64,000 bases of DNA from Gammaproteobacteria bacterium (GTDB lineage: Bacteria; Pseudomonadota; Gammaproteobacteria; Poriferisulfidales; Poriferisulfidaceae): assembly GCA_026713705.1 (NCBI GenBank), contig JAPONY010000059.1:55670-119669 (forward strand), given 5' to 3'. Positions 1-15,220 of this stretch are shown here, in pieces; positions within the stretch are counted from its first letter, which is position 1, and each line of letters opens with the position of its first letter. The translations under genes and the position numbers were made by a program. The notes below the pieces were generated by a model that was not told the origin of the DNA, did not search any database, and saw only the letters and a program-made list of their open reading frames with translations.

Positions 1-267
1 GTGCACGTCTTCAAGGCTTGCATCCCACTCGGCTTCGCCGGAATCGATGCGCGCGCGCACCTGCGCCAGACCCTTGACGAGGGTCTCGCATTCTTCCTCG
101 CTGAGCACGCCTGCCCGGTGCAACCCACGGGCATGCGCCTGCGACCCCTGGATGTCATAGGGGTACAGGCGGCCGTCGAAATGGACGGACGCGGTAAACG
201 TCTCCACCTGGCTGTCGGTCGCCCGAGCGAACCGTCCAGCCCAGGGTTTCGCTGTAGATTGAGGCAT
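1..267 (-). CDS. argH: Argininosuccinate lyase, N-terminal part; the gene continues beyond the window start
   Basis: Minus-strand translation from ATG at 267 reads MPQSTAKPWAGRFARATDSQVETFTASVHFDGRLYPYDIQGSQAHARGLHRAGVLSEEECETLVKGLAQVRARIDSGEAEWDASLEDVH, which matches the conserved ArgH N-terminus (WGGRF...DI.GS.AH...L.DVH). It is GC-rich and host-like. The plus-strand ORF 1..309 in the track is its antisense. Confidence 0.8.
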   Translation of the reverse strand, partial: MPQSTAKPWAGRFARATDSQVETFTASVHFDGRLYPYDIQGSQAHARGLHRAGVLSEEECETLVKGLAQVRARIDSGEAEWDASLEDVH

Positions 268-375
268 GTGACCCTCACGAATTTAGAGGTATTTTACGGC
301 AGCACATGATTTATCGCTGACAATGGGCCTGCCGTTTCGCGACTCGGTAGGCTAAGTATCGGGATTTCTGCCTTC

Positions 376-639
376 TTAATCGCCCTCGTCAAGTCCAAGG
401 ACTTGACGACTGAATTTTGAATCATTGCATTCCTCAGGCCATCTTTCCCTGTTTCCCGAAACCCCAAGGTGTTTTCGGACCGATTCTAGTTTTTCGAAGT
501 CGATTCCTCCTCGACCTTGCCGACACACGAGTTCGGCGACTGGTTCCCCATTTTCTAGAATAACGACCCGCTCACCGCTCTTCACAATCTCGACCAGTTC
601 AGAAAGGCGCGTTTTCGCTTCGTGAATAGGAAGCTCCAT
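376..639 (-). CDS. Phd/YefM (prevent-host-death) family antitoxin-like protein
   Basis: 87 aa. The N-terminus MELPIHEAKTRLSELVEIVKSGERVVILENGEPVAELV is the classic Phd/YefM-VapB antitoxin fold signature. It lies 5 bp downstream of the 344-aa gene on the same strand. No PIN/VapC or RelE-type toxin follows it. Confidence 0.7.
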   Translation of the reverse strand: MELPIHEAKTRLSELVEIVKSGERVVILENGEPVAELVCRQGRGGIDFEKLESVRKHLGVSGNRERWPEECNDSKFSRQVLGLDEGD

Positions 640-643
640 TCCC

Positions 644-1678
644 TTACCCGTCCAACATTTCTGTTGCTGCTTCGGTTACTTTCTCTCCCGACGGCCTTTT
701 CCCGAATTCTACAAAATTGACTCCCTGATCTTGGCTACTTTCGTACTCCACCAGACCAGTCGGTACACTACCGAAGACAGTTTTTGTGGCAGCCATCAAA
801 ACAGCATCTCGGACATAAGGGTCATCTGCCGCCTTCACAAATGCCTGAAAGGTTTTAAGGCTCAAAGCACGATGCTTATTCACTGTCGCTTGATGAATTA
901 GTGCGCGATAGATACGCCCACACCAGATTGTCCCTGTGAAGAGAACAGCAATAATTGCTACTTTACTAGCAACGTTGCGGAGGGTTTCCCAACCATCGGC
1001 CTTTGGTGAAACTTCGGGCCAAAAATAGGACCCAATCGCCGCACCTATAGTTAGAGCCGCAAATACAGCCGTAGCAATCAGCCAATTTTTTGACCGTGCG
1101 CCGAGTGTCGATGCTTCATCACGAAACTCTTCCGTGAATGTAGCTACCCCCGTACTCGCTGCTGCTGCGCGAGCAGCTTTTATGATTTCTTCTATTTCAC
1201 TATTTTTGTCGTCAGCCGATTTTTTTGCTTCCTCAAGAATTTTTCCTGCATCAGCAACCGCTTGGTTTAATTTCGTTATATTGTCCGTAGCATCGCCACG
1301 CCTATAGGCGAGGTATGGAATAGAAGAACCTGCAACAGCATAAAGAGCTTCGACCTGTGCGTGGAGGTTTTGAGAGAGATTGTCTCGCCTACTGACCGGG
1401 TCTCCTCCTTCAAGCGAGAATTGATCGATTTCTGCTAATCCGCCAACTACTCCAGGAACGTAATCAATTATCTGTTGCGCGGTAGTATCCGTTAGGTATT
1501 GAAGCGGTAGGTCTAAAAGATCTGTAGCCACGGATAGAGCTAAGTCGATATCTGCCCGTGCTTCTTCGAAGTTAATTGAACCCCATTTATCCTTACGGCT
1601 AACTAGGTCAATGTCTGTATATGCCGCTAATGATTGAAGCTCCCCTTTAAGGCTATCGATTAAGTGCTGCGTTGCCAT
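644..1678 (-). CDS. Two-transmembrane-helix protein of unknown function with a soluble N-terminal domain; possible membrane-acting toxin or abortive-infection effector
   Basis: 344 aa. Two predicted hydrophobic helices (NWLIATAVFAALTIGAAIGSYFW and VAIIAVLFTGTIWCGRIY) sit in the C-terminal half. An AAGGAA SD lies 9 nt upstream of ATG 1678. GC is low. It is co-directional and nearly contiguous with the Phd-like gene. Confidence 0.6.
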   Translation of the reverse strand: MATQHLIDSLKGELQSLAAYTDIDLVSRKDKWGSINFEEARADIDLALSVATDLLDLPLQYLTDTTAQQIIDYVPGVVGGLAEIDQFSLEGGDPVSRRDNLSQNLHAQVEALYAVAGSSIPYLAYRRGDATDNITKLNQAVADAGKILEEAKKSADDKNSEIEEIIKAARAAAASTGVATFTEEFRDEASTLGARSKNWLIATAVFAALTIGAAIGSYFWPEVSPKADGWETLRNVASKVAIIAVLFTGTIWCGRIYRALIHQATVNKHRALSLKTFQAFVKAADDPYVRDAVLMAATKTVFGSVPTGLVEYESSQDQGVNFVEFGKRPSGEKVTEAATEMLDG

Positions 1679-1692
1679 ATTCCCAGTTCCTT

Positions 1693-1870
1693 ATAGATTA
1701 AACCTGACTGAACTATCAGCGTCGTCATTTCCAACCCTTTCATAGATGCCGTCTAACACCCTGTCCATGGAATCTGCCTCAGCAATCATGCCATTCTTCA
1801 GGGCGAGTACGGCATAGCCAGAGCTCTTTGTTCCGGTGAAGTACATCGCATGCATTCCATCCATGCCCAC
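1693..1870 (-). CDS. Small ORF (59 aa with GTG start, 57 aa from ATG 1864) leading the minus-strand operon
   Basis: My own translation: (V)GMDGMHAMYFTGTKSSGYAVLALKNGMIAEADSMDRVLDGIYERVGNDDADSSVRFNL. AGGAG lies 9 nt upstream of GTG 1870. The TAA stop is 14 nt before the 344-aa gene start. It is just under the 60-aa cutoff, so it is absent from the ORF track. Confidence 0.3.
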
Positions 1871-2002
1871 ATCCAGATACTCCTAGTGAGTATGCATTGT
1901 AACTCACAGTCTTTAGACTTTGAAATTTAACGAAAATTATCGTAAATACAATGGATTACGTGGTCGTCATGAGGATACGCTAGGATACACTCTAAATCGT
2001 TC

Positions 2003-2029
2003 TCTGCGGGTGTCTCGGCAACCCGCAGA
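2003..2029. promoter_or_regulatory. Perfect 9-bp inverted repeat TCTGCGGGT-N9-ACCCGCAGA in the divergent promoter region of the island operons
   Basis: Read directly from the sequence. It lies about 60 bp upstream of the methyltransferase ATG (2089). No T-run follows on either strand, so it is more likely an operator or RNA structure than an intrinsic terminator. Confidence 0.3.
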
Positions 2030-2088
2030 ATAAACGAATTAACAAGGTTCACTCATACCCATACTCAAAAATTGCTGACATCATCCCA

Positions 2089-5000
2089 ATGCCTACTCGC
2101 CAGACCTCGGAATCCCGAGAAAAATTCAATCAGCTGAAAGCCCTACTGAGGGAAATGTTCCAACTTGACCGGGGCGACCTTGACTTCGGCCTGTACCGGA
2201 TCATGAACATGATGGCGGACAAGATCACGAAGTTCCTTGATAATGACTTGTTGCCTCAAGTCAAGACGATATTGGCCGGGGTCTCTGATGAGGACAGAGC
2301 CGATCTAGAAAAACATGTTGAAGACGCGAGAGCGATGGCCAAATCTCTGGGAATCAACCCGGACGATGCGCCGAAAGTGATTGAATTGGAACGGCAGTTG
2401 GCCGAAGCAAAAACAGATGCGGAAGCCGAGGCGGATGTCTATGGTTACTTGGCTAACTTTTTCTCCCGATACTACAGTGAAGGCGATTTCATGTCGCTGC
2501 GCCGCTACTCTGGAGGGGGCGACTCGGCCTATCATATTCCCTATGACGGGGAAGAGGTGAAACTGCACTGGGCCAATGCGGATCAATACTACATCAAGAC
2601 GGCGGAAAATTACGCCTCCTACGCTTTTACGCTCCAAAAGAACCGGCATGTCAAGTTTGAAACTGTAGCGGCCGATAGCAAGAAAGACAACATCAAGGAA
2701 ACTAGCGGCAGACAACGTCGCTTCGTGTTGGTGCCCGGGAAAGGTGCCATTGTGCATGCAGACGAGACACTGATAGTTCGCTTTGAGCATCGCCCGCTAA
2801 CGGATAGCGAAAAGAAGAAATTCCCTGGAAATGGGGACGGCCAACAAAACCGGATCAACCAAGCGACAACAGAGCGCATCTTGCAAAACCTAAATCCGGA
2901 TTGGCGAGCTTGTCTTTCTGAACTTGAGCCAACTGGAGCCAATAGCAAACGCACGAAACTCGAAAAGCACGTTGAACGCTACACAGCGAAAAATAGCTTT
3001 GACTACTTCATCCACAAGGACCTAGGTGGTTTCCTGCGCCGCGAGATGGATTTCTATCTGAAAAGCGATGTGTTCAACCTGAACGACATCAATGCCAGCA
3101 ATATGGTTCAATTACGCCGTGCGCAGTTGCGAGTGCGTGCGACTCGTGAAATGGGCGAGAAAATCATCTCCTTTCTTGAGCAGTTAGAAAATTTCCAGAA
3201 GAAACTCTGGCTCAAGAAGAAATTCGTACTGGACACGCATTGGTGCGCCACCCTCGACCACGTGCCAGAAACCTTCTACGCCGAAATAGCAGCCAATGAA
3301 AGGCAAGTTGAAGAATGGAAAGAACTGTTTGCGATTAACGAAATTGACGGTAGCCTTTCCAATGACGGCACGGGATATTCCGACCCACTAACCATCGGAT
3401 TTCTCAAGGCCAACCCGTATTTAATACTGGATACGAGACATTTTGACCGTGACTTCACAGACCGCCTACTAGCAACCTTGTCCGAAATTGGTCCATTGGA
3501 TGCGAAGACTGATGGAGTATTTGTCCATGGAGAGAATTTTCAAGCACTAAACCTTTTAAAGAAACGATACCACAGCCAAGTGGAATGCGTCTACATTGAT
3601 CCTCCCTACAATACAGGCGACTCAGAAATCTTGTATAAAAATGGGTACCTTAAATCCTCGTGGCTGACTCTGATGGCCAATCGGCTGGCTCTTCTCCCTG
3701 AAATATTAACTCAAGACCTTGTTCTCTATATCGCAATTGACGATTTTGAAATGGTCGACCTTGCAAAACTTCTAGATGAAGAATATCCCTCATTACGACG
3801 CGAGACAATTATTGTTAATCACCACCCACAAGGGGGGAAAGCTCAAACCTTAGCGCATACACATGAATACATGCTCGCATGCGTACCCACATCGTCAAGT
3901 AGAACACTTGTAGGAAGAACAGGCCACCGTGACGAAGAACAACGGCCGTTTAGAAGAAGCGGAACTGCCGAAAGTAACTTTCGTTACGCGCGGCCGAACA
4001 GTTTCTACGCAATTCTAGTAGACCCCTCTTCCCGTCAAGTTGTAGGTTTGGAACCGCCACCAATAAAACATGAGTATCCGACAGAACCGACTGACAAAAA
4101 TCTCGTCAGAATTTATCCTATTGGCGCACAAGGAGAGGAGCGGGTGTGGAGAAAGTCTTATAAATCATGCCAAGCACTCGTCGACGGTAACAAATTGTGC
4201 TGTTCCAAAAGCAATACAATTTATCAGAGGATTAATGCTGATGAGCGGAAAACTGCACTATTTAGCAACTGGACAGATTCCCGATATAACGCAGGCACAT
4301 TTGGCGCTAATTTGCTAAGCGACATCACTGGTGCACCCAATCAATTTTCCTATCCCAAATCAATTCATACTGTCGAAGACGCAATCTTCGCAGCCAACCT
4401 TAATGCGGACGCATATATATTGGATTATTTTGCTGGCTCCGGTACAACTGGCCATGCAATTATTAATCTAAATCGAGAAAATAACACTCATTACAAATAC
4501 CTAATGGTCGAGATGGCCGATCATTTCGATGCAGTGCTATTGCCACGTATCAAGAAAATCATTTATTCGCCAGGCTGGGAAGGCGGCAAACCAGCCTCCC
4601 GCGACGAAGGCATCTCGCAACTCTTCAAATACATCCGTCTCGAATCATACGAAGACACACTGGACGGCCTCGTATGGAAACCAAAGGAAAGTGATTTGTT
4701 CGCTGATAATCCTGCGCTGTCCGAAGACTATCAGCTGCGTTACTCGCTCAATGTAGAAACTCAAAACAGCACCAACCTGCTGGGCATGGATTGTCTCAAT
4801 CCATTTGCCTGTACCATTTCCACCGTACGCGATGGAGTGCGCCAAGATGTGCCCGTAGACCTGCCAGAAACTTTCAACCATCTTATTGGTCTGCATGTTC
4901 ACTCTTACCAGAAAATTGATGATGTTCTCTCTATTACTGGTACAGACAGCCAGAAACGAAATTGTCTGATTCTTTGGCGCAATCTCGAAAAAACAGACAA

Positions 5001-5184
5001 TGCCAAACTGGAAAAATGGTTCGATCTCAACCGGAAGCTCTTCCCTGACTCACTTGCTCTTGTCTACGTCAATGGCGACCACACTCTGAATGCGATTCGA
5101 GGAAAGAAAGACATCTGGACTGCGAAAACCATTGAACCCGTCTTTCGAGCCTTGATGTTCGAGGATTGCTCGTATGGCAAATAA
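2089..5184 (+). CDS. Large beta-class N6-adenine (or N4-cytosine) DNA methyltransferase: a Type III Mod-like C-terminal region (aa about 470–1031) fused to an uncharacterised N-terminal domain of about 470 aa
   Basis: 1031 aa. Motif IV DPPY lies at aa 504–507, preceded by the GENFQALNLLKKRY lead-in typical of the N6_N4 methyltransferase family. Motif I FAGSGTT lies at aa 781–787, after a stretch of about 270 aa that is presumably the target-recognition domain (TRD). This is the beta-class order IV...TRD...I. The N-terminal 470 aa (EKFNQLKALLREMFQLDRGDLDFGLYRIMN; YGYLANFFSRYYSEGDF...PYDGEEVK) matches nothing I can assign. GC is low. It overlaps the next gene by 11 nt. Confidence 0.85.
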   Translation: MPTRQTSESREKFNQLKALLREMFQLDRGDLDFGLYRIMNMMADKITKFLDNDLLPQVKTILAGVSDEDRADLEKHVEDARAMAKSLGINPDDAPKVIELERQLAEAKTDAEAEADVYGYLANFFSRYYSEGDFMSLRRYSGGGDSAYHIPYDGEEVKLHWANADQYYIKTAENYASYAFTLQKNRHVKFETVAADSKKDNIKETSGRQRRFVLVPGKGAIVHADETLIVRFEHRPLTDSEKKKFPGNGDGQQNRINQATTERILQNLNPDWRACLSELEPTGANSKRTKLEKHVERYTAKNSFDYFIHKDLGGFLRREMDFYLKSDVFNLNDINASNMVQLRRAQLRVRATREMGEKIISFLEQLENFQKKLWLKKKFVLDTHWCATLDHVPETFYAEIAANERQVEEWKELFAINEIDGSLSNDGTGYSDPLTIGFLKANPYLILDTRHFDRDFTDRLLATLSEIGPLDAKTDGVFVHGENFQALNLLKKRYHSQVECVYIDPPYNTGDSEILYKNGYLKSSWLTLMANRLALLPEILTQDLVLYIAIDDFEMVDLAKLLDEEYPSLRRETIIVNHHPQGGKAQTLAHTHEYMLACVPTSSSRTLVGRTGHRDEEQRPFRRSGTAESNFRYARPNSFYAILVDPSSRQVVGLEPPPIKHEYPTEPTDKNLVRIYPIGAQGEERVWRKSYKSCQALVDGNKLCCSKSNTIYQRINADERKTALFSNWTDSRYNAGTFGANLLSDITGAPNQFSYPKSIHTVEDAIFAANLNADAYILDYFAGSGTTGHAIINLNRENNTHYKYLMVEMADHFDAVLLPRIKKIIYSPGWEGGKPASRDEGISQLFKYIRLESYEDTLDGLVWKPKESDLFADNPALSEDYQLRYSLNVETQNSTNLLGMDCLNPFACTISTVRDGVRQDVPVDLPETFNHLIGLHVHSYQKIDDVLSITGTDSQKRNCLILWRNLEKTDNAKLEKWFDLNRKLFPDSLALVYVNGDHTLNAIRGKKDIWTAKTIEPVFRALMFEDCSYGK

Positions 5185-6064
5185 TCCTCCGAATCTTTCA
5201 TTCTCTCAACGCTACGGTCATGAGCCTCTGCCGGAGCCAATGCAACTGGAACATCTATCAAAAGACCTAAGGAGAGAAATCTGGAATGCCGTTCGGGATG
5301 GTCTGAAAGAAATCCGTTATTCTTCTATTGAATACACCGTTGATGCAAATGAACCGCCCTCAAGATTTTTTGCCCGTACCCTAGGCACTCTTGAAAAAAT
5401 CCCGGAAGATGAAGTACCTAGTCAAGATGGGCTGGTTCTCCAGCAATTCAAGTCAATAGTGATGCACCGTGATTTCAATATCGTATTAGACTTGATTGAA
5501 AGATTACTGAACAGTGATTTTCCTACTGCAGCACTTCGCTCCCGCATACCGGCTTTGTTTGAGAAACATGCTGCAGCATACCGGCTTGATATGTCTCAGC
5601 AACCGTATTGGTTTTATCCACAGGGCAACAGGGAGCAAGGAGAAGCAATACAGCAATCCATTGAAACAATTCATCAGAACAATATGGACGGTGCTACTAC
5701 ACACTTGCGTCAAGCTGTTGAACACATCAATGCGCAGCAATATGCAGACTCAATTACTGACAGCATCCATGCTGTCGAATCTGTAGCACGTCAGATCGCT
5801 CCTAAAGCAAATACTCTAGGTACGGCACTTAACTTTCTTATAAAAGAAGGATCATTAATGAATCCAGTACTTAAAAAAGCATTTGAAAAACTCTATGGAT
5901 ATACAAACAGTGAACAAGGTGTTCGACATGCTCTTTTGGACCAGGGTTCTCCTAATGTTGGCTTGGATGAGGCTGTTTTTATGTACGGGGCATGTGCGTC
6001 CTTTGCCGCATACCTGACCAGAAAATACCAGCAAGTAGCACAGCAAGGGACCGACGGCCGATGA
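5174..6064 (+). CDS. HEPN-domain protein, AbiJ-like (N-terminal AbiJ-NTD-like region plus C-terminal HEPN with Rx4HxN), embedded between mod-like and res-like genes
   Basis: 296 aa. The N-terminus MANNPPNLSFSQRYGHEPLPEPMQLEHLSKDLRREIWNAV resembles the N-terminal domains that accompany AbiJ-type HEPN proteins. The candidate HEPN motif is R179-QAVE-H184-I-N186 (TTHLRQAVEHINAQQY), followed by LYGYTNSEQGVRHALL. The start overlaps the upstream stop by 11 nt, and the stop overlaps the downstream ATG (ATGA), so it is translationally coupled on both sides. Confidence 0.55.
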   Translation: MANNPPNLSFSQRYGHEPLPEPMQLEHLSKDLRREIWNAVRDGLKEIRYSSIEYTVDANEPPSRFFARTLGTLEKIPEDEVPSQDGLVLQQFKSIVMHRDFNIVLDLIERLLNSDFPTAALRSRIPALFEKHAAAYRLDMSQQPYWFYPQGNREQGEAIQQSIETIHQNNMDGATTHLRQAVEHINAQQYADSITDSIHAVESVARQIAPKANTLGTALNFLIKEGSLMNPVLKKAFEKLYGYTNSEQGVRHALLDQGSPNVGLDEAVFMYGACASFAAYLTRKYQQVAQQGTDGR

Positions 6065-9000
6065 GGGGCCGACGGTCAGCACCCCTCCTCCAGGACCGTC
6101 TTGTCCTGCTCCGCTTCATGTGCCAGGAATTTGGCTATGCCGACATGGACGCGATGCTTGACCGCCTGCGCGATGCGCTGCCCGTATTCACAGCAAGAAG
6201 AGAAAGCGAATATGCCCGCGCCCTGTACCTGCACCCCGATAACGCAAGCATCAGCGCAGAAACTTTCACTGAATATGACGCAAATATCGCCATGTACAGC
6301 CAGCGCCTGCACATGACGGAAGAACGTGGTCGGTCATGGAAGCCCCATCAATATCTCGCGCTACTGTTCACCGAACACTACCTGAATCGCTATTTCAGTG
6401 ATCCCCAAGCGCTATGCGCTGGCCTGAATGCGACGAAAACCGCGAACCCGATGACCCGCAGCATGCCCGATTGCACCCCAAGGGATCTGCATACCGTCGC
6501 TCTCCAAAGCGCAACAGGCTCCGGCAAAACGCTGATCATGCATGCATCGATCCTGCAATACCAGCATTGGCTCAACCGCTCAGGCCAACGACTCAACAAC
6601 GTCATCCTTGTGACGCCGAACGAACACATGTCCAAACAACACAATCGGGATTTGCAGGAAAGCAATATCTCCGCACGGCTTTTCTCCAATGAGGCGGGCC
6701 CCGACTTATTCGCTTCCGTAGAGATCATTGATCTCAACAAGCTGGCAGAAAAAAGAGGGATCAAGCGTGTCGCGGTGCGGGATTTCGGCGAAAACAATCT
6801 GGTCCTAGTCGATGAGGGACACCTTGGGGCATCTGGAAAGGCATGGCGAGAACGCCGCGAGGAACTGGCACGGGGCGGATTTACTTTCGAGTATTCTGCA
6901 ACCTTCAATCAAATCACGGGCAAAGACCCTGCCCTGCGGGATGTCTACGGAAAATGCCTGCTGTTCGATTACGCTTACCGGGAGTTTTATAAGGACGGTT
7001 ACGGAAAGGACTACTCTATTTCGAACCTGCCAAGGGGAGCGGAAGACGAAAACAGCCGCATGTACCTGCTTGGGTGCCTGCTCACCTTTTACCTGCAATG
7101 TTGTATTTGGAGAGACAGGGATATCGAATGGGTTGATTTCAATTTGGCAAAACCGCTATGGGTGTTCCTCGGAAAAACCGTGACTGGAAGCAGCAAAGCA
7201 GATAGGGAGACCAAATCGGACGTTATCAATATCCTAGATTTTTTTGGTTGGCTGTTAGCGAATAAAAAGGATGTATGCGCCATGTTTAAACGTCTGCTGG
7301 CCAACGATTCAGGAATCACCAACGAACTAGACGAAGATTTCTTCGCTGACAGATTTGCCAGATTCAAATCGAGCCGGCCAAATGACCTCTACGCCGATAT
7401 TTGCGAAACCCTGTTTCACGGAGAAGGACAATTGCATGTCGTCTACATCACTGGCGGAGACGGTGAATTTCACTTACGCGCTGCTGACCATTCTCCCTTT
7501 GGCGTCGTCAACATCGGAGATTCGGCTGCCCTCCACAAAATACTGAAAGAAAAAGCTAACCCGGATTTTCGTGTGGAGCGGGAACTCGGCTTTGCAAAAG
7601 TGTTATTCCCGACGGTTGACCAGCCGGATTCAAAAGTGAACATCGTAATCGGTGCGCGCCGCTTTATTGCAGGATGGAACTGCTGGCGAGTCAGCACCAT
7701 GAGCCTAATGCATGTGGGTGTAGGAGAGGGACCAGAAATCATCCAGATGTTCGGAAGAGGAGTCCGCTTGAAAGGCTGGAACATGAGTTTGAAACGTCAT
7801 CAGAAAAGTGGTGCCAAACTACCGCAAGGCAGCGAGGAGCTGGCTGAATTGGAAACCCTGCATATCTTTGGATTGCGTGCGAACTACATGCAAATCTTCC
7901 GAGACCTGCTGGAAAAGGAGAGGATCGCACTGGAGCACATCAAACTCCCTGTGACGTGGAATTTCGCAAAAACGACCGACCTGAAATTCATCCGGCTCAA
8001 AAAGGGCCAAAAATACATGGGATCGGGAGAACGATTGACCTTGCCACTCCCCAACGCAGGCAATCCCACCGTGAAACTAGATTTGTATTCTCGGCTGCAA
8101 TCCGTAGCATCCAGCAAATCCACCGCCATCGAAAGAGAAAAGGTTCAATTCAAATTCACTCCGTGTCACACCTCCCTATTCAACAGGACTCGCATCTATG
8201 ACTCCCTGATAGCGCACAAGCGCCAAATGGGTTGGCACAATTTGGCCCTTCATGCTGAAACCATAGATGAACTACTAGCCAACGACACATGGTACGAACT
8301 TCAGGCCCCTCCCGAAAAAACCGATATGCAAAATTTTAAGGATGTGCAGGCATTAGAGGATGTGGCCATTGATCTTCTTGCCAAATATGCGGATCAACAT
8401 TGGCGAAAACAGCGAAGAAAGTGGGAGCATGAAAACATCGAGGTGGTGACGCTGGGTGAAAACGACCCGAACAACATCAAGGAACATCGGTTGTCGCTGG
8501 ATGCAAAAGAGGAAAGGCTAGTCGAGGATATTCGTTCACTCAGAACGAATCTCAACCACCCTCTTCCTAGAGACCTGAGGCTCATCGTCATCAGAACCAA
8601 GGTTCACGCCTATGAACCTCTCCTGTACGCGAGCAAGGACTGCAAGGTCACGGTCCAGCCCGTTCCCCTGAATCAAGGCGAAAAAAGCGTCGTAGAAAAA
8701 CTGGAGTCATTAGCCCGATACAACGATGGCTGCCTGCGAGGCCGAGACCTTTTCCTGATTCGCAACCGGACGCACGGCAGAGGCGTTTCTTTTTTTGATG
8801 ACTGCGGCTATTACCCGGACTTCATCGTCTGGTTGAAGAACGATAACAGCCAGCATGTAATCTTTCTTGATCCGAAAGGACTTGGCTACTATGGTCAGGA
8901 AAAACGCAAAAAAGTGGAATTACATGCTGAAATCAAGGAGGTCGAAAAGCGAGTGCGTAATGACGATCAAACCCTGCGCTTACACGCTTATGTCCTATCG

Positions 9001-9129
9001 GTCACTGCTCCGGAAAAGATTAGCGAACAACGCACGAAGCAGGAATGGAAAGAAGATGGCGTTTATTTTCTGCAAGACCCAGATTGCCTGAAACAAATTA
9101 TTACGGATGTGCTTGGGCCAACATCTTGA
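6061..9129 (+). CDS. Type III restriction Res-like protein: SF2 helicase (DEGH box) with a C-terminal PD-DxK endonuclease domain and an extra N-terminal region of about 150 aa
   Basis: 1022 aa from ATG 6061 (ATGA overlap with the upstream stop). The track's start at 5992 is an upstream in-frame extension. Walker A is LQSATGSGKT (K156). Motif II is LVLVDEGH (aa 250–253). Motif VI is QMFGRGVRLKGW. A C-terminal nuclease core is YYPDFIVWLKNDNSQHVIFLDPKG (PD...D-x-K). The arrangement is the same as EcoP15I-type Res but with a longer N-terminus. GC is low. Confidence 0.85.
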   Translation: MRGRRSAPLLQDRLVLLRFMCQEFGYADMDAMLDRLRDALPVFTARRESEYARALYLHPDNASISAETFTEYDANIAMYSQRLHMTEERGRSWKPHQYLALLFTEHYLNRYFSDPQALCAGLNATKTANPMTRSMPDCTPRDLHTVALQSATGSGKTLIMHASILQYQHWLNRSGQRLNNVILVTPNEHMSKQHNRDLQESNISARLFSNEAGPDLFASVEIIDLNKLAEKRGIKRVAVRDFGENNLVLVDEGHLGASGKAWRERREELARGGFTFEYSATFNQITGKDPALRDVYGKCLLFDYAYREFYKDGYGKDYSISNLPRGAEDENSRMYLLGCLLTFYLQCCIWRDRDIEWVDFNLAKPLWVFLGKTVTGSSKADRETKSDVINILDFFGWLLANKKDVCAMFKRLLANDSGITNELDEDFFADRFARFKSSRPNDLYADICETLFHGEGQLHVVYITGGDGEFHLRAADHSPFGVVNIGDSAALHKILKEKANPDFRVERELGFAKVLFPTVDQPDSKVNIVIGARRFIAGWNCWRVSTMSLMHVGVGEGPEIIQMFGRGVRLKGWNMSLKRHQKSGAKLPQGSEELAELETLHIFGLRANYMQIFRDLLEKERIALEHIKLPVTWNFAKTTDLKFIRLKKGQKYMGSGERLTLPLPNAGNPTVKLDLYSRLQSVASSKSTAIEREKVQFKFTPCHTSLFNRTRIYDSLIAHKRQMGWHNLALHAETIDELLANDTWYELQAPPEKTDMQNFKDVQALEDVAIDLLAKYADQHWRKQRRKWEHENIEVVTLGENDPNNIKEHRLSLDAKEERLVEDIRSLRTNLNHPLPRDLRLIVIRTKVHAYEPLLYASKDCKVTVQPVPLNQGEKSVVEKLESLARYNDGCLRGRDLFLIRNRTHGRGVSFFDDCGYYPDFIVWLKNDNSQHVIFLDPKGLGYYGQEKRKKVELHAEIKEVEKRVRNDDQTLRLHAYVLSVTAPEKISEQRTKQEWKEDGVYFLQDPDCLKQIITDVLGPTS

Positions 9130-9156
9130 CTAGCCACTTCGAGTAGGCCAAGCCTA

Positions 9157-9582
9157 ATGCCGCAATCCATGAAAAAAACCGATTCTCCGACATCCTTTGA
9201 GGACAAGGTTGCCGTGCTGATTGACGGCGGTCTGGAACTGTATTGGGATCGAACCGTCACCATGACTCCGGCCCAACGCGAAGCGGTTGCGCGGCTGGAA
9301 GAGAAGTTCCTGGAGGGGTTTAATGTGGACGGCGTGCGCTACGATCGCCCGGACTCGCTCAAGCGGGCTCAGTTGGCCGCAAGCCTGATCCCCCAGGCGC
9401 TGCAACGCGGGGATGATTCGCTGGCCGCCACTGCTCTGGCGCTGACCTGCACCTCCCTGCCCGACCTGAAACAGATCCAATATCGCCGACGGCAAGACGG
9501 GAGCTGGGATATCGCATTCGTCAGCGACCGTTTCTATGCACCTGACGAGCGGCCTGTCCAATTGATGCCACGCACTCCATGA
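9157..9582 (+). CDS. Hypothetical protein upstream of hemC; the true start is possibly internal (MTPAQREAV at about 9262)
   Basis: 141-aa ORF whose stop overlaps the hemC ATG (ATGA). GC rises to the host level only after about 9260. The opposite-strand ORF 9154..9561 looks less protein-like. Confidence 0.4.
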   Translation: MPQSMKKTDSPTSFEDKVAVLIDGGLELYWDRTVTMTPAQREAVARLEEKFLEGFNVDGVRYDRPDSLKRAQLAASLIPQALQRGDDSLAATALALTCTSLPDLKQIQYRRRQDGSWDIAFVSDRFYAPDERPVQLMPRTP

Positions 9583-10508
9583 GCAAATCTCTCTGCCGCA
9601 TTGCCACCCGCCGCAGCCCGCTCGCGGTCCGGCAGGCCGAACTGGTGGCCGAGGCGCTGGTCCAAGCGCAGGGCCTGAGCACGGAACTGCTGCGCGTGCA
9701 GACCGAGGGTGACCAGGTACTGGATCACCCCTTGGCCGAAATCGGTGGCAAGGGCCTGTTCGTCAAGGAACTCGAACTTCGCCTGCTGGCAGGCGACGCC
9801 GATCTTGCGGTTCATTCGATGAAGGATGTGCCGGCGGACCTCCCGGCCGGCCTCACGTTGGGCGCAATCTGCACCCGCGCCGACCCCCGGGACGGCGTCA
9901 TCGCCCCCCGCCACAAGACGCTTGACGCGCTCCCTGCAGGCAGCCGTGTCGGAACATCCAGCCTGCGGCGCAAGGCACAGTTGCAGGCACGGTTCCCGGA
10001 TCTTCAATTCCTGGATCTGCGCGGCAATGTCGGAACCCGCCTGAAACGGCTGCAAGATGGAGATTTCGAAGCCATTGTGCTGGCCTGTGCAGGCCTGCAG
10101 CGTCTAGACCTGGACGGGCAGATCACCCAGATCCTGGAGCCCGAAGAGTGCCTGCCCGCCATCGGCCAGGGCGCACTCGGCATCGAGATCGCCGAAGACC
10201 ATCCGCACGCTCGCGCCTGGGTGGCCGCATTGCACGACGACGCCACCGCCGCTGCCGTGACCGCGGAGCGCATGGTCAGCCGTGCGTTGTCCGGCAGCTG
10301 CCAGATTCCCCTGGCGGCCCATGCGGTCTGTACCGGCCTCCGAGAAGTCCGCCTGCAAGCCTGCCTCGCGCGCCCGAACGGCAGCCTGATCCTGCGTGCG
10401 GAAGCCGAGGGAGACCCCAAGATTGCCGGTGCGCTGGCCGCAAAACAACTGCTGGAACAAGGCGGTGCGGATATCCTGGCCGAACTGGGGGTCGAAGGCT
10501 ACGCATGA
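9579..10508 (+). CDS. hemC: Hydroxymethylbilane synthase (porphobilinogen deaminase)
   Basis: 309 aa. RIATRRSPLAVRQAELV...EGDQVLDHPLAEIGGKGLFVKELE is the canonical HemC sequence. Confidence 0.95.
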   Translation: MSKSLCRIATRRSPLAVRQAELVAEALVQAQGLSTELLRVQTEGDQVLDHPLAEIGGKGLFVKELELRLLAGDADLAVHSMKDVPADLPAGLTLGAICTRADPRDGVIAPRHKTLDALPAGSRVGTSSLRRKAQLQARFPDLQFLDLRGNVGTRLKRLQDGDFEAIVLACAGLQRLDLDGQITQILEPEECLPAIGQGALGIEIAEDHPHARAWVAALHDDATAAAVTAERMVSRALSGSCQIPLAAHAVCTGLREVRLQACLARPNGSLILRAEAEGDPKIAGALAAKQLLEQGGADILAELGVEGYA

Positions 10509-13421: not shown

Positions 13422-13829
13422 TGCAAGACAGGCCCTCCTGATTCCGGCTCGTCCGGGCCGGGCGGGGGCGAGGCATGATGCATGATCATGCGCCAGCCTT
13501 CATCCGTGCCGCAGTAGATGTTGGTCGCCAGCACGATGCCGACGATATGGTGCCGCAGGTACAGGGTTTCCGTCAGATGGCTGATGGCGAACTGGTCTGC
13601 CAACTCGTCCCGGTAATGGTATTCCCGTTCGAAATGAAACGGTACTTCCGCCTGGAAGATCTGTTTCCAGCTCTCCTCCACCTCCTCGCGCCCGGTCAGC
13701 AGCTGGCCTCCGGGATGGATGCAGAATATCGAGCGGTCCGTTGCCCATACCTGCATCATGGCCTCTACATCCTGCTGAGCGAACGCCTCGTAGAAAGCGT
13801 CTTCGGCTTCGGCCGCGGAACGTAGCATG
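13418..13829 (-). CDS. SnoaL-like / NTF2-fold (DUF4440-like) protein
   Basis: Start set at MLRSAAEAEDAFYEAFAQQDVEAMMQVWA (ATG 13829). The upstream part of the track ORF lies in AT-rich DNA. The fold call comes from an NTF2-like composition pattern and is low-confidence. Confidence 0.5.
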
Positions 13830-13915
13830 ATGTGGTGTGCCCCTCTCTCTTGAGTATCATACTCGCCCCCTTTAACCCATCCCCACCTGCCTCCCATTTT
13901 GATAGACTTGGGTGC

Positions 13916-14194
13916 ATGAAACTCTTCAGATCGCCGCATTCGACGAAGCCCAAGCCGCAGTCATGGTCCAAACCATCACAGCGACTGGCACCGCTTAACC
14001 ACGAAAAACTATCTGAATCGGGTAGTCGGCCAGTTGATCCATATGAAGAAGACTGGGACATGCACCCCGACACGCGGGCTGCATTGCAGGAGTTTCGCGC
14101 CGACATGCGGGCTTCATTTCGGGAGCTTCGCTGGTATATCGCCTACGTCGGAGCCATGACGATTATCATAGTGAAGTCTCTTTCGCTTGTGTGA
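13916..14194 (+). CDS. Short DUF1640-like protein (coiled-coil plus C-terminal transmembrane helix); the start could be 13832
   Basis: The C-terminus RADMRASFRELRWYIAYVGAMTIIIV is paralogous to the C-terminus of the 14429..14827 protein. Confidence 0.4.
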   Translation: MKLFRSPHSTKPKPQSWSKPSQRLAPLNHEKLSESGSRPVDPYEEDWDMHPDTRAALQEFRADMRASFRELRWYIAYVGAMTIIIVKSLSLV

Positions 14195-14296
14195 AGACCC
14201 CGTAAGATCCACTCAAGCAAATATCCAGAGGATGCCGAAAAAATCACCCTGAAGTCGCATCCAGAATAGCCTATAACCTATTGACTTTCAAAGGAT

Positions 14297-14326
14297 AAAA
14301 ATGGTCAAAAAATTCTGACCATTTTT
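14297..14326. promoter_or_regulatory. AT-rich perfect inverted repeat AAAAATGGTCA-N8-TGACCATTTTT upstream of the second DUF1640 gene
   Basis: Read directly. An 11-bp arm is a palindromic operator candidate. A TTGACT hexamer lies 10 bp upstream. Confidence 0.3.
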
Positions 14327-14428
14327 CCTTGCCTTTCCCGTCCCCTTCTGACACCATCCCATCCCGACCCGAGGAGTGCTTTCAACAAGCATTTCCTCCC
14401 GCTAGCCACTCGTCAAGGAGAGACGTCC

Positions 14429-14827
14429 ATGAAACCCAGCACACAAGAGTCCGCTGCCACCCCCGGTGCGAATAAAACGGGGGCACCTCGTACCCCGCAT
14501 TTTGATAAACTCAGGACCATGAAGACTCTGCAGGCCGCCACTTTCAGCGAAGACCAGGCCGGAGCCGTGGTTGAAGCCATGGATGACGCCCAGCACCACT
14601 TGGCCACCAAAAGCGACATGGAAAAGATGGAGTCCAGCCTACGAACGGACATGGAAAAGATGGAGTCCGGCATACGGGCGGATATGGAAAAGATGGGACT
14701 TCGTCTGCAGGGCGAAATCAAGGATCTACGCGCCGACATGCAGGCCGAATTCAAGAGGCTCTATTGGTATATCCCTATCGTCGTCGGGGTTATGGCCAGC
14801 ATCATGGGGGCTTTCGCATCTCTGTGA
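14429..14827 (+). CDS. DUF1640 family protein (coiled-coil with C-terminal membrane anchor)
   Basis: 132 aa. ...LATKSDMEKMESSLRTDMEKMESGIRADMEKM...LRADMQAEFKRLYWYIPIVVGVMASIMGAFASL matches the DUF1640 pattern (heptad-like repeats then a transmembrane helix). Confidence 0.6.
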   Translation: MKPSTQESAATPGANKTGAPRTPHFDKLRTMKTLQAATFSEDQAGAVVEAMDDAQHHLATKSDMEKMESSLRTDMEKMESGIRADMEKMGLRLQGEIKDLRADMQAEFKRLYWYIPIVVGVMASIMGAFASL

Positions 14828-14920
14828 ATATCCTGGAAGGCTTCTTGCTTCGGCAATTGACCGAGCCCTTGAAGATCGCCTGCCGCAAACGGTCGGCGAT
14901 GCGCTGGTTAAAATAGAATC

Positions 14921-15220
14921 ATGAACGGCTCCCGCTTCTACACCGCCATCTCCCCTTGGACCGTGCTGGCCACGGCCGTCAGCTGGGGTCTCACCGTCGC
15001 TCTGGCCTTCAACCTTCTGGGCGGGCCTTTCGAGATGCGCAGTTGCCAGACCGGCTGCATGCAAAGCCTGGGACTGGCCTCGTTCATCGTCGCGGTCGCC
15101 GGCGTGCTGGTCGGCCACCGGCCCCCGCATCACCTGGTGACCCTGCTGTGCCTGCTCTCCATGCTGGGCCTGATCCTCATCTATCTGACCACCTTCTTCA
15201 TCGGCGTCTTGTTCAGCTGA
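14921..15220 (+). CDS. Small integral membrane protein (three predicted transmembrane helices)
   Basis: 99 aa and hydrophobic throughout. The opposite-strand 184-aa ORF is low-complexity and rejected. Confidence 0.4.
   Translation: MNGSRFYTAISPWTVLATAVSWGLTVALAFNLLGGPFEMRSCQTGCMQSLGLASFIVAVAGVLVGHRPPHHLVTLLCLLSMLGLILIYLTTFFIGVLFS

Follow-up and report, generated by a model that had tools for sequence, protein, structure and literature searches.

What does a gene for a HEPN-fold protein do between the methyltransferase and nuclease genes of a Type III-like restriction-modification (R-M) operon? This question is raised by a stretch of 64,000 nt (the window) from a Gammaproteobacteria bacterium (GCA_026713705.1, contig JAPONY010000059.1, positions 55,670 to 119,669 of the forward strand), in which three intact, overlapping plus-strand genes occupy positions 2089 to 9129 in the order Mod-gene2-Res (Table 1). 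A preliminary description of this DNA took the operon for an undescribed composite defense system, possibly one in which the HEPN component regulates or licenses Res. The analysis reported here favors another answer, which we hold to be rather probable: gene 2 is a HEPN module for abortive infection that is autonomous and that occupies, as cargo, a variable slot between mod and res of a horizontally acquired Type III-like operon.

Three overlapping genes and their products

The coupling of the three genes by overlapping stop and start codons, noted in the preliminary description, was confirmed, with an 11-nt overlap at the first junction and an ATGA at the second. The Res open reading frame (ORF) opens at position 5992, but the ATG at 6061 serves as the coupled start. 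Curated Type III profiles cover almost the entire length of both Mod and Res. Mod was matched by Pfam N6_N4_Mtase (9.7e-19) and by the PADLOC model MTase_III (PDLC03646, 8e-224), and Res was matched by Pfam ResIII (2.8e-08) and by PADLOC REase_III (PDLC03654, 2e-152). The motifs listed earlier for all three proteins were found. In Mod, DPPY (motif IV) at aa 504 precedes FAGSG (motif I, FxGxG) at aa 781, as in other beta-class enzymes, and the sequence matches of Mod in the PDB are Type III Mods (6k0w, Mbo45V 7dsu, and EcoP15I Mod 4zcf). Between these two motifs, the tblastn alignments of five loci (L032, L040, L047, L054, and L057) break exactly at aa ~575 to 777, while the flanks are 50 to 60% identical. 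Judged by the architecture of Type III Mods, this segment is probably the target recognition domain (TRD). Res contains GSGKT at aa 153 to 157 (with K156), DEGH at 251 to 254, P919-D920, and D937-P938-K939; GSGKT, DEGH, QMFGRG, and PD...DPK are invariant in the A4 alignment of close homologues. A sequence search of the PDB with Res returned no relative at an E value of <0.01.

The extra 470 aa at the N terminus of Mod and the N-terminal extension of Res had been singled out in the preliminary description. Both extensions exist, but they belong to the family at large. Because the PADLOC model is 1057 positions long and distant family members (35 to 40% identity) align from about residue 3 to residue 1025, the ~470-aa N terminus of Mod is a hallmark of the whole family. 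The extension of Res is likewise conserved across the whole Mod/Res family. The N-terminal domain of Mod has no recognizable structural relative in the PDB. This domain, whose core motif (D)LDFG-YR-M is invariant, is kept in bacteria and haloarchaea.

Gene 2 was matched by Pfam AbiJ_NTD4 (2.7e-11; 44.6 bits against a gathering cutoff of 34), which bears out the AbiJ-like N terminus proposed for it, and all 32 members of the A1 alignment match this family at the E value limit of ≤1 that was used (best E value, 2.8e-17). The protein is also a full-length match to the PADLOC candidate PDC-S32 (6e-54; aa 8 to 286 against positions 7 to 282 of the 285-position model). Its C-terminal domain has a HEPN fold, and the residues conserved there, in A1 and among the 81 homologues described below, are H177, R179, (H184), N186, E202, R251-H252, and D265-E266. 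An identical gene 2 protein is recorded from a Gammaproteobacteria metagenome-assembled genome (MAG).

The preliminary description had singled out an Rx4HxN motif in this domain. The motif is present in the window, as RQAVEH at aa 179 to 184 followed by N186 (R179-x4-H184-x-N186), and R179 and H184 appear conserved in A1, in which the mean column identity is 65%. The gene 2 alignment was scanned against one genome per species, yielding 79 loci, and homologues were counted in these and in two metagenome loci, for a total of 81. R179 is kept in 69/81 homologues, N186 in 66, and H184 in only 51, whereas H177 is kept in 78, R251 in 80, and H252 in all 81. By these counts, the proposed Rx4H motif, although present in the window protein, is not the best-conserved feature of gene 2.

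Recurrence of the cassette and variability of the mod-res junction

Nearly all of the 79 loci come from MAGs; they span many phyla, and many bear sponge-associated names. Gene 2 lies between Mod and Res, in the order Mod-gene2-Res, in 41 of the 81 homologues, so the gene order of the window recurs in 41 other loci. The genomes with triple loci include Terriglobia, Latescibacterota, Nitrospirales, Binatia, Arenicellales, and Alpha- and Gammaproteobacteria MAGs. Junction overlaps of -1, -4, or -11 nt are kept in most triple loci, and an overlap of -4 or -1 is kept at most loci with gene 2 directly before Res. The GC content of the cassette is below that of its flanks in 37 of the 41 loci, by roughly 17 to 20 points in the window. 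Because the order is the same in 41 loci, the junction overlaps are conserved, and the GC content of the cassette is low, the three-gene layout is neither a chance nor a one-off arrangement but a cassette that recurs and moves horizontally. Gene 2 lies just upstream of Mod-Res in 3/81 cases, and a Mod-gene2 arrangement occurs in 2/81, one at a contig end and the other in locus L023, where a second copy closely follows Res. That locus, which also has Mod-gene2-Res, carries the second copy at positions 14119 to 15012 as a divergent paralogue, 44% identical to the window protein.

In 35/81 cases gene 2 stands alone. The neighbors of these solo copies are heterogeneous (TENA/THI-4, AAA_21, AAA_15, HTH, M78 peptidase, Type ISP, and housekeeping genes), and the same solitary state is seen in more distant homologues carried by plasmids and phages. 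In a neighbor-joining tree, embedded and solo copies are interspersed, and no embedded-specific clade is seen. At L005 (9900 to 11088), only stubs flank an intact gene 2: 26 aa from the C terminus of Mod on one side and 79 aa from the N terminus of Res on the other. In this locus, deletion removed the R-M genes and left the HEPN gene in place. Locus L163, which has Mod-Res without gene 2, has neighbors like those of L005, with an M78 peptidase gene upstream and TENA/THI-4 downstream. Full-length homologues of gene 2, 26 to 31% identical, occur in a few phages, where they are annotated as hypothetical proteins.

More than 5600 Res homologues with genome context are on record. The junction itself was examined in a metagenome sample drawn through Res, irrespective of gene 2, that yielded 70 loci with both Mod and Res. 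The classical two-gene Type III operon, which is not found at the window with its three genes, is found in this sample, since Mod and Res are adjacent in 48/70 loci; therefore, the third gene of the window has been inserted into what is basically a two-gene operon. Inserts measure ~0.5 kb in 2/70 loci and at least 0.8 kb in 20/70. Gene 2 occupies two of the 20 large inserts (L080 and L081). The others hold RhuM, a YhcG/DUF1016 nuclease, AAA_21 with DUF4276, DUF2971, an Abi_C-like gene, RelE with Xre, IS200, or ORFs without a Pfam match. In the other respects compared, the window operon resembles classical Type III systems such as EcoP15I and EcoP1I: mod lies upstream of res, the beta-class Mod has a central TRD and is similar to EcoP15I Mod, and Res combines a superfamily 2 (SF2) helicase with a C-terminal PD-(D/E)xK nuclease. 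It differs from them in that Mod is ~400 to 470 aa longer, owing to its N-terminal domain, in that sequence searches detect no relative of Res in the PDB, and in that an extra gene separates mod from res.

Thirteen close relatives (Res 60 to 81% identical) were chosen irrespective of whether they carry gene 2. Of these, 6/13 have gene 2 in the slot (L080, L081, L160, L162, L169, and L170), L171 has a TIR gene there, L083 has RelE/Xre, and L168 and L172 have other, unidentified cargo, whereas the slot is empty in L163 and L173. In the last of the 13, L161, it holds a 58-aa in-frame remnant of gene 2 (positions 5828 to 6004), in which ~29 aa from the start of the protein are joined to ~23 aa from its end and the overlaps with Mod and Res are both kept. 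This remnant suggests that selection kept the translational coupling of Res while the HEPN protein was lost. Because both junctions are kept in it, it also suggests that translation of Res depends on an upstream reading frame. Deletion remnants thus exist in both directions, with gene 2 lost in L161 and Mod/Res lost in L005. In these data, the mod-res junction of the long-Mod family behaves as a defense-cargo hotspot.

Three families recur in the slot (Table 1). The representatives tested have no Pfam match, and the 285-aa family has a weak match to PADLOC HEC-05. These families are candidates for new embedded defense genes.

A conserved HTH_31 ORF of ~107 to 112 aa, 75 to 86% identical between loci, was also observed upstream of Res. 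In L170 and L172, this ORF and Res share one base, the last of the ORF and the first of Res. The placement of the ORF resembles that of an R-M controller (C) protein.

Table 1. Coordinates of the operon, its parts, and related features (positions are those of the window unless a locus or phage is named)
Feature	Position	Strand	Description
Mod	2089..5184	+	1031 aa; beta-class N6-adenine DNA methyltransferase of the long-Mod Type III-like family
Mod N-terminal ~470-aa domain	2089..3498	+	Helical bundle with beta-rich insert; holds the DLDFGLYRIMN motif
Probable TRD of Mod	3811..4419	+	aa ~575-777, between DPPY (motif IV) and FxGxG (motif I)
Gene 2	5174..6064	+	296 aa; AbiJ_NTD4 + HEPN-fold protein of the PADLOC candidate family PDC-S32
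HEPN-like helical domain of gene 2	5621..6055	+	C-terminal, aa ~150-294; from model secondary structure and conservation
Res	6061..9129	+	1022 aa; SF2 helicase + C-terminal PD-(D/E)xK nuclease
Mod stop/gene 2 start overlap	5174..5184	+	11 nt; translational coupling, read from sequence
Gene 2 stop/Res start overlap	6061..6064	+	ATGA, read from sequence
Low-GC island with operon	376..9150	.	GC 0.44-0.55 vs 0.62-0.72 in the remaining window (composition profiles)
Slot cargo, TIR	L171:4142-4924		CAP12-PCTIR_TIR
Slot cargo, RelE + Xre	L083:4066-4732		
Slot cargo, RhuM	L111:8239-9255		
Slot cargo, YhcG/DUF1016	L143:8758-9813		PD-(D/E)xK nuclease
Slot cargo, AAA_21/AAA_15 ATPase + DUF4276	L140:8018-9145; L151:657-2506		
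Recurrent slot family	L020:10943-11917; L080:2874-3806; L169:3730-4662		~310 aa
Recurrent slot family	L020:12021-13499; L065:6144-7622; L168:3484-4965		~493 aa
Recurrent slot family	L025:8968-9822; L065:7828-8682; L172:3650-4483		~277-285 aa
HTH_31 ORF	L170:3128-3466; L172:4663-5001; L064:10921-11256; L051:12519-12839		
Gene 2 homologue, Rhizobium phage RHEph01 (H32/H33)	42518-43327		
Gene 2 homologue, Curtobacterium phage Barebow (H35)	13526-14359		

Role of the embedded HEPN gene

Type III enzymes cleave DNA in an ATP-dependent reaction about 25 bp from an asymmetric site and require two inversely oriented unmethylated sites; Mod hemimethylates the site. From such established knowledge, the long Mod of the window would recognize and methylate an asymmetric DNA site, and Res would translocate or switch on ATP and cleave unmodified DNA. 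The mod-res junction acts as a cargo slot for accessory defense or toxin genes, and gene 2, co-transcribed and translationally coupled with its neighbors, is produced together with both. On the pattern of HEC-08, a HEPN protein embedded in Hma systems, and of a framework published in 2013 (PMC3710099), the NTD4 domain may sense a phage component or infection cue and free the C-terminal HEPN RNase. The freed domain would cut RNA and, if restriction fails, arrest growth or abort the infection, providing an independent second layer. Embedding would link the inheritance and expression of gene 2 to the R-M genes without making it a subunit of the enzyme; co-regulation and linked transfer are what it most likely confers. 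As we interpret the locus, dual DNA restriction and HEPN-based defense is its most plausible function.

This reading has precedents. HEPN genes embedded in R-M operons, AbiJ-type genes included, were described in 2013 (Anantharaman et al., PMC3710099). "Guilt-by-embedding" has since been formalized by Payne et al., who released the PDC candidates in PADLOC and found that the embedded protein HEC-08 is protective, an activity that depends on the Rx4-6H histidine (10.1101/2024.01.29.577857). Given these reports and the PDC-S32 match of gene 2, the label of an undescribed composite system is not supported for the operon. Like other PDC candidates, gene 2 is found both embedded and solo; the difference from PDC-S32 as released is that the host here is a Type III-like Mod/Res pair, and PDC-S32 is itself a candidate only. 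Gene 2 shares with lactococcal AbiJ and the AbiJ-NTD1-5/HEPN families an AbiJ-type N-terminal domain (NTD4 in this case) followed by a C-terminal HEPN-fold domain. In contrast to these families, its C-terminal domain is not matched by Pfam Abi_C, and whereas the AbiJ proteins in R-M operons are mostly solos without the N-terminal domain, here a full NTD4-plus-HEPN protein is embedded (PMC3710099). HEC-08 is likewise a single-gene HEPN protein inside a multigene defense system, and protection was shown for it, but it belongs to another HEPN family (DUF3644 with Zn ribbons) and another host system. A full-text search of a literature library for PDC-S32 found no paper, and a literature search for Type III R-M, HEPN, and embedding found nothing specific. 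The embedding of an AbiJ-NTD4/HEPN gene in a Type III-like system and the use of the mod-res junction as a cargo slot do not appear to have been described in the literature searched. Mechanistically, the locus is no departure from known concepts and is not a new type of defense system.

Several observations weigh against the view of gene 2 as autonomous cargo. The sampling is dominated by sponge-associated MAGs. About half of the close homologues belong to a single R-M family, in which slot and orientation never vary and codons overlap, and the pairwise divergences of gene 2 and Res are significantly correlated (Mantel r = 0.68, p = 0.001). The association is thus far stronger than casual embedding, and gene 2 and Res may be linked functionally or physically. 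The divergence signal rests largely on one distant clade; with that clade removed, the Spearman coefficient is 0.34 for gene 2-Res versus 0.68 for Mod-Res. H184 is replaced in 30/81 homologues. Pfam Abi_C (PF14355) gave no match to the window protein at an E value of ≤1 and was not among the 25 most-matched of 42 families for the 32 aligned homologues, although one database homologue carries a precomputed PF14355 match. A Foldseek comparison of the gene 2 model with the PDB gave no significant match (the top, nonsignificant match is also a HEPN domain), and a search of PDB sequences with the A1 profile gave nothing useful. Because Abi_C does not match and Foldseek found no significant PDB match, the RNase activity of gene 2 is not assured. 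The mechanism of AbiJ is still unknown (PMC13064643), and the anti-phage role of the AbiJ-NTD4/HEPN (PDC-S32) family is a candidate role that we infer, as we do the RNase activity, trigger, and anti-phage effect of gene 2 itself.

In a rival account, the three genes would form a true three-component system, in which the Mod/Res complex binds and silences the HEPN protein and a phage anti-restriction factor releases the RNase. The precedent for such a guard is PrrC, encoded in the Type Ic EcoprrI operon by a co-oriented HEPN-superfamily RNase gene and thought to be a backup once restriction is defeated (PMC3710099). The fixed position of gene 2 between mod and res, the conserved overlapping stop and start codons, the embedding of 41/81 homologues in one R-M family, and the significant co-divergence with Res all fit this account. 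However, PrrC has an ABC-ATPase N-domain, whereas the N-domain of gene 2 is AbiJ_NTD4; Pfam detected no ATPase there, nor does gene 2 have anything else that compares with the regulatory domain of PrrC. PrrC, which is physically masked by the R-M enzyme, is almost exclusively embedded, whereas the 35 solo copies of gene 2 lie in unrelated neighborhoods. Further evidence against a guard comes from the absence of an embedded-specific clade, from L005, which keeps gene 2 after the loss of Mod and Res, and from close relatives whose slot holds unrelated cargo or nothing. On this evidence, we regard a PrrC-like guard as unlikely. It is similarly doubtful that a guard of this kind, which would be the first described for Type III, spread as a whole three-gene unit across more than 10 phyla within sponge microbiomes.

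Gene 2 might instead bring no phage defense at all, being a toxin-like or inactive HEPN gene that acts as a selfish or addictive hitchhiker linked to a selected, mobile R-M cassette. The slot also collects toxin-antitoxin modules (RelE/Xre) and IS200 transposases, H184 is variable, gene 2 has decayed in frame in L161, and a "genomic sink" idea of this sort has been discussed (10.1101/2024.01.29.577857). Strong purifying conservation across phyla, apparent in R251, H252, H177, and the column identity of A1, is difficult to reconcile with such a passenger, as are the retention of an intact solo gene in many genomes and phages and the defense conferred by the related embedded protein HEC-08, and we consider this explanation improbable. 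Least probable of all, to a degree that makes it hardly credible, is the suggestion that a HEPN-fold protein without RNA cleavage controls the activity or expression of the Res nuclease. Translation of Res is coupled to gene 2, and the L161 remnant, which keeps both junctions, suggests that this coupling matters for Res expression. Yet Mod lies directly next to Res, with no such protein, in the 48/70 family members noted above; the slot of close relatives is empty (L163 and L173), filled by a TIR gene (L171) or RelE/Xre (L083), or reduced to a remnant (L161); unrelated genes fill it elsewhere; and gene 2 is widespread without any R-M neighbor. The regulatory role raised in the preliminary description is therefore not upheld. 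An obligatory role as a Type III subunit was ruled out for gene 2 by the close relatives that are without it or have replacement cargo.

The view of gene 2 as cargo extends the embedded-defense-gene principle from Type I RM, BREX, DISARM, and Hma to a large, little-studied Type III-like family. The mod-res slot, with its HEPN, TIR, RelE/Xre, RhuM, YhcG, ABC-ATPase, and recurrent uncharacterized families, could be mined for defense genes, and Mod-HEPN-Res offers a compact construct, coupled by nature, in which PDC-S32 defense and its cooperation with restriction could be tested. The spread of the cassette over phyla in sponge symbionts is also a clear example of horizontal sharing of a defense module within one habitat.

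Genomic setting and distant relatives

The operon lies within a low-GC island of the window (Table 1), and hemC/hemD/hemY adjoin the right edge of this island by Pfam annotation. No tRNA genes and no convincing flanking direct or inverted repeats were found at the island boundaries, and no Rfam elements were found in positions 1 to 10000 of the window. Promoter and terminator scans performed no better than on shuffled sequence. A conserved fourth gene downstream of Res was sought at positions 9157 to 9582, and this region has no homologue in any fetched locus.

To the left of the operon lie a Phd/YefM-type antitoxin gene (positions 376 to 639, minus strand; Pfam, 6.5e-09) and a 344-aa gene without an assigned function (positions 644 to 1678, minus strand), with the antitoxin gene directly downstream of the latter. 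Pfam, NCBIfam, and PADLOC gave no match for the 344-aa gene, whose sole relative among the fetched loci is a weak one in L074. It has two hydrophobic, apparently membrane-spanning segments near aa 200 to 255. It may encode a toxin or membrane effector partner.

Distant members of the long-Mod/Res family (Res ~33% identical) were observed on conjugative IncF plasmids of Escherichia coli, Klebsiella, and Citrobacter. In the one plasmid examined, pEC316_2 of E. coli (L164, NZ_CP018955.1, positions 1 to 9147), Mod directly adjoins Res, and an SNF2-related gene lies immediately upstream. The PGAP names for the genes are only "DNA methyltransferase" and "DEAD/DEAH box helicase."

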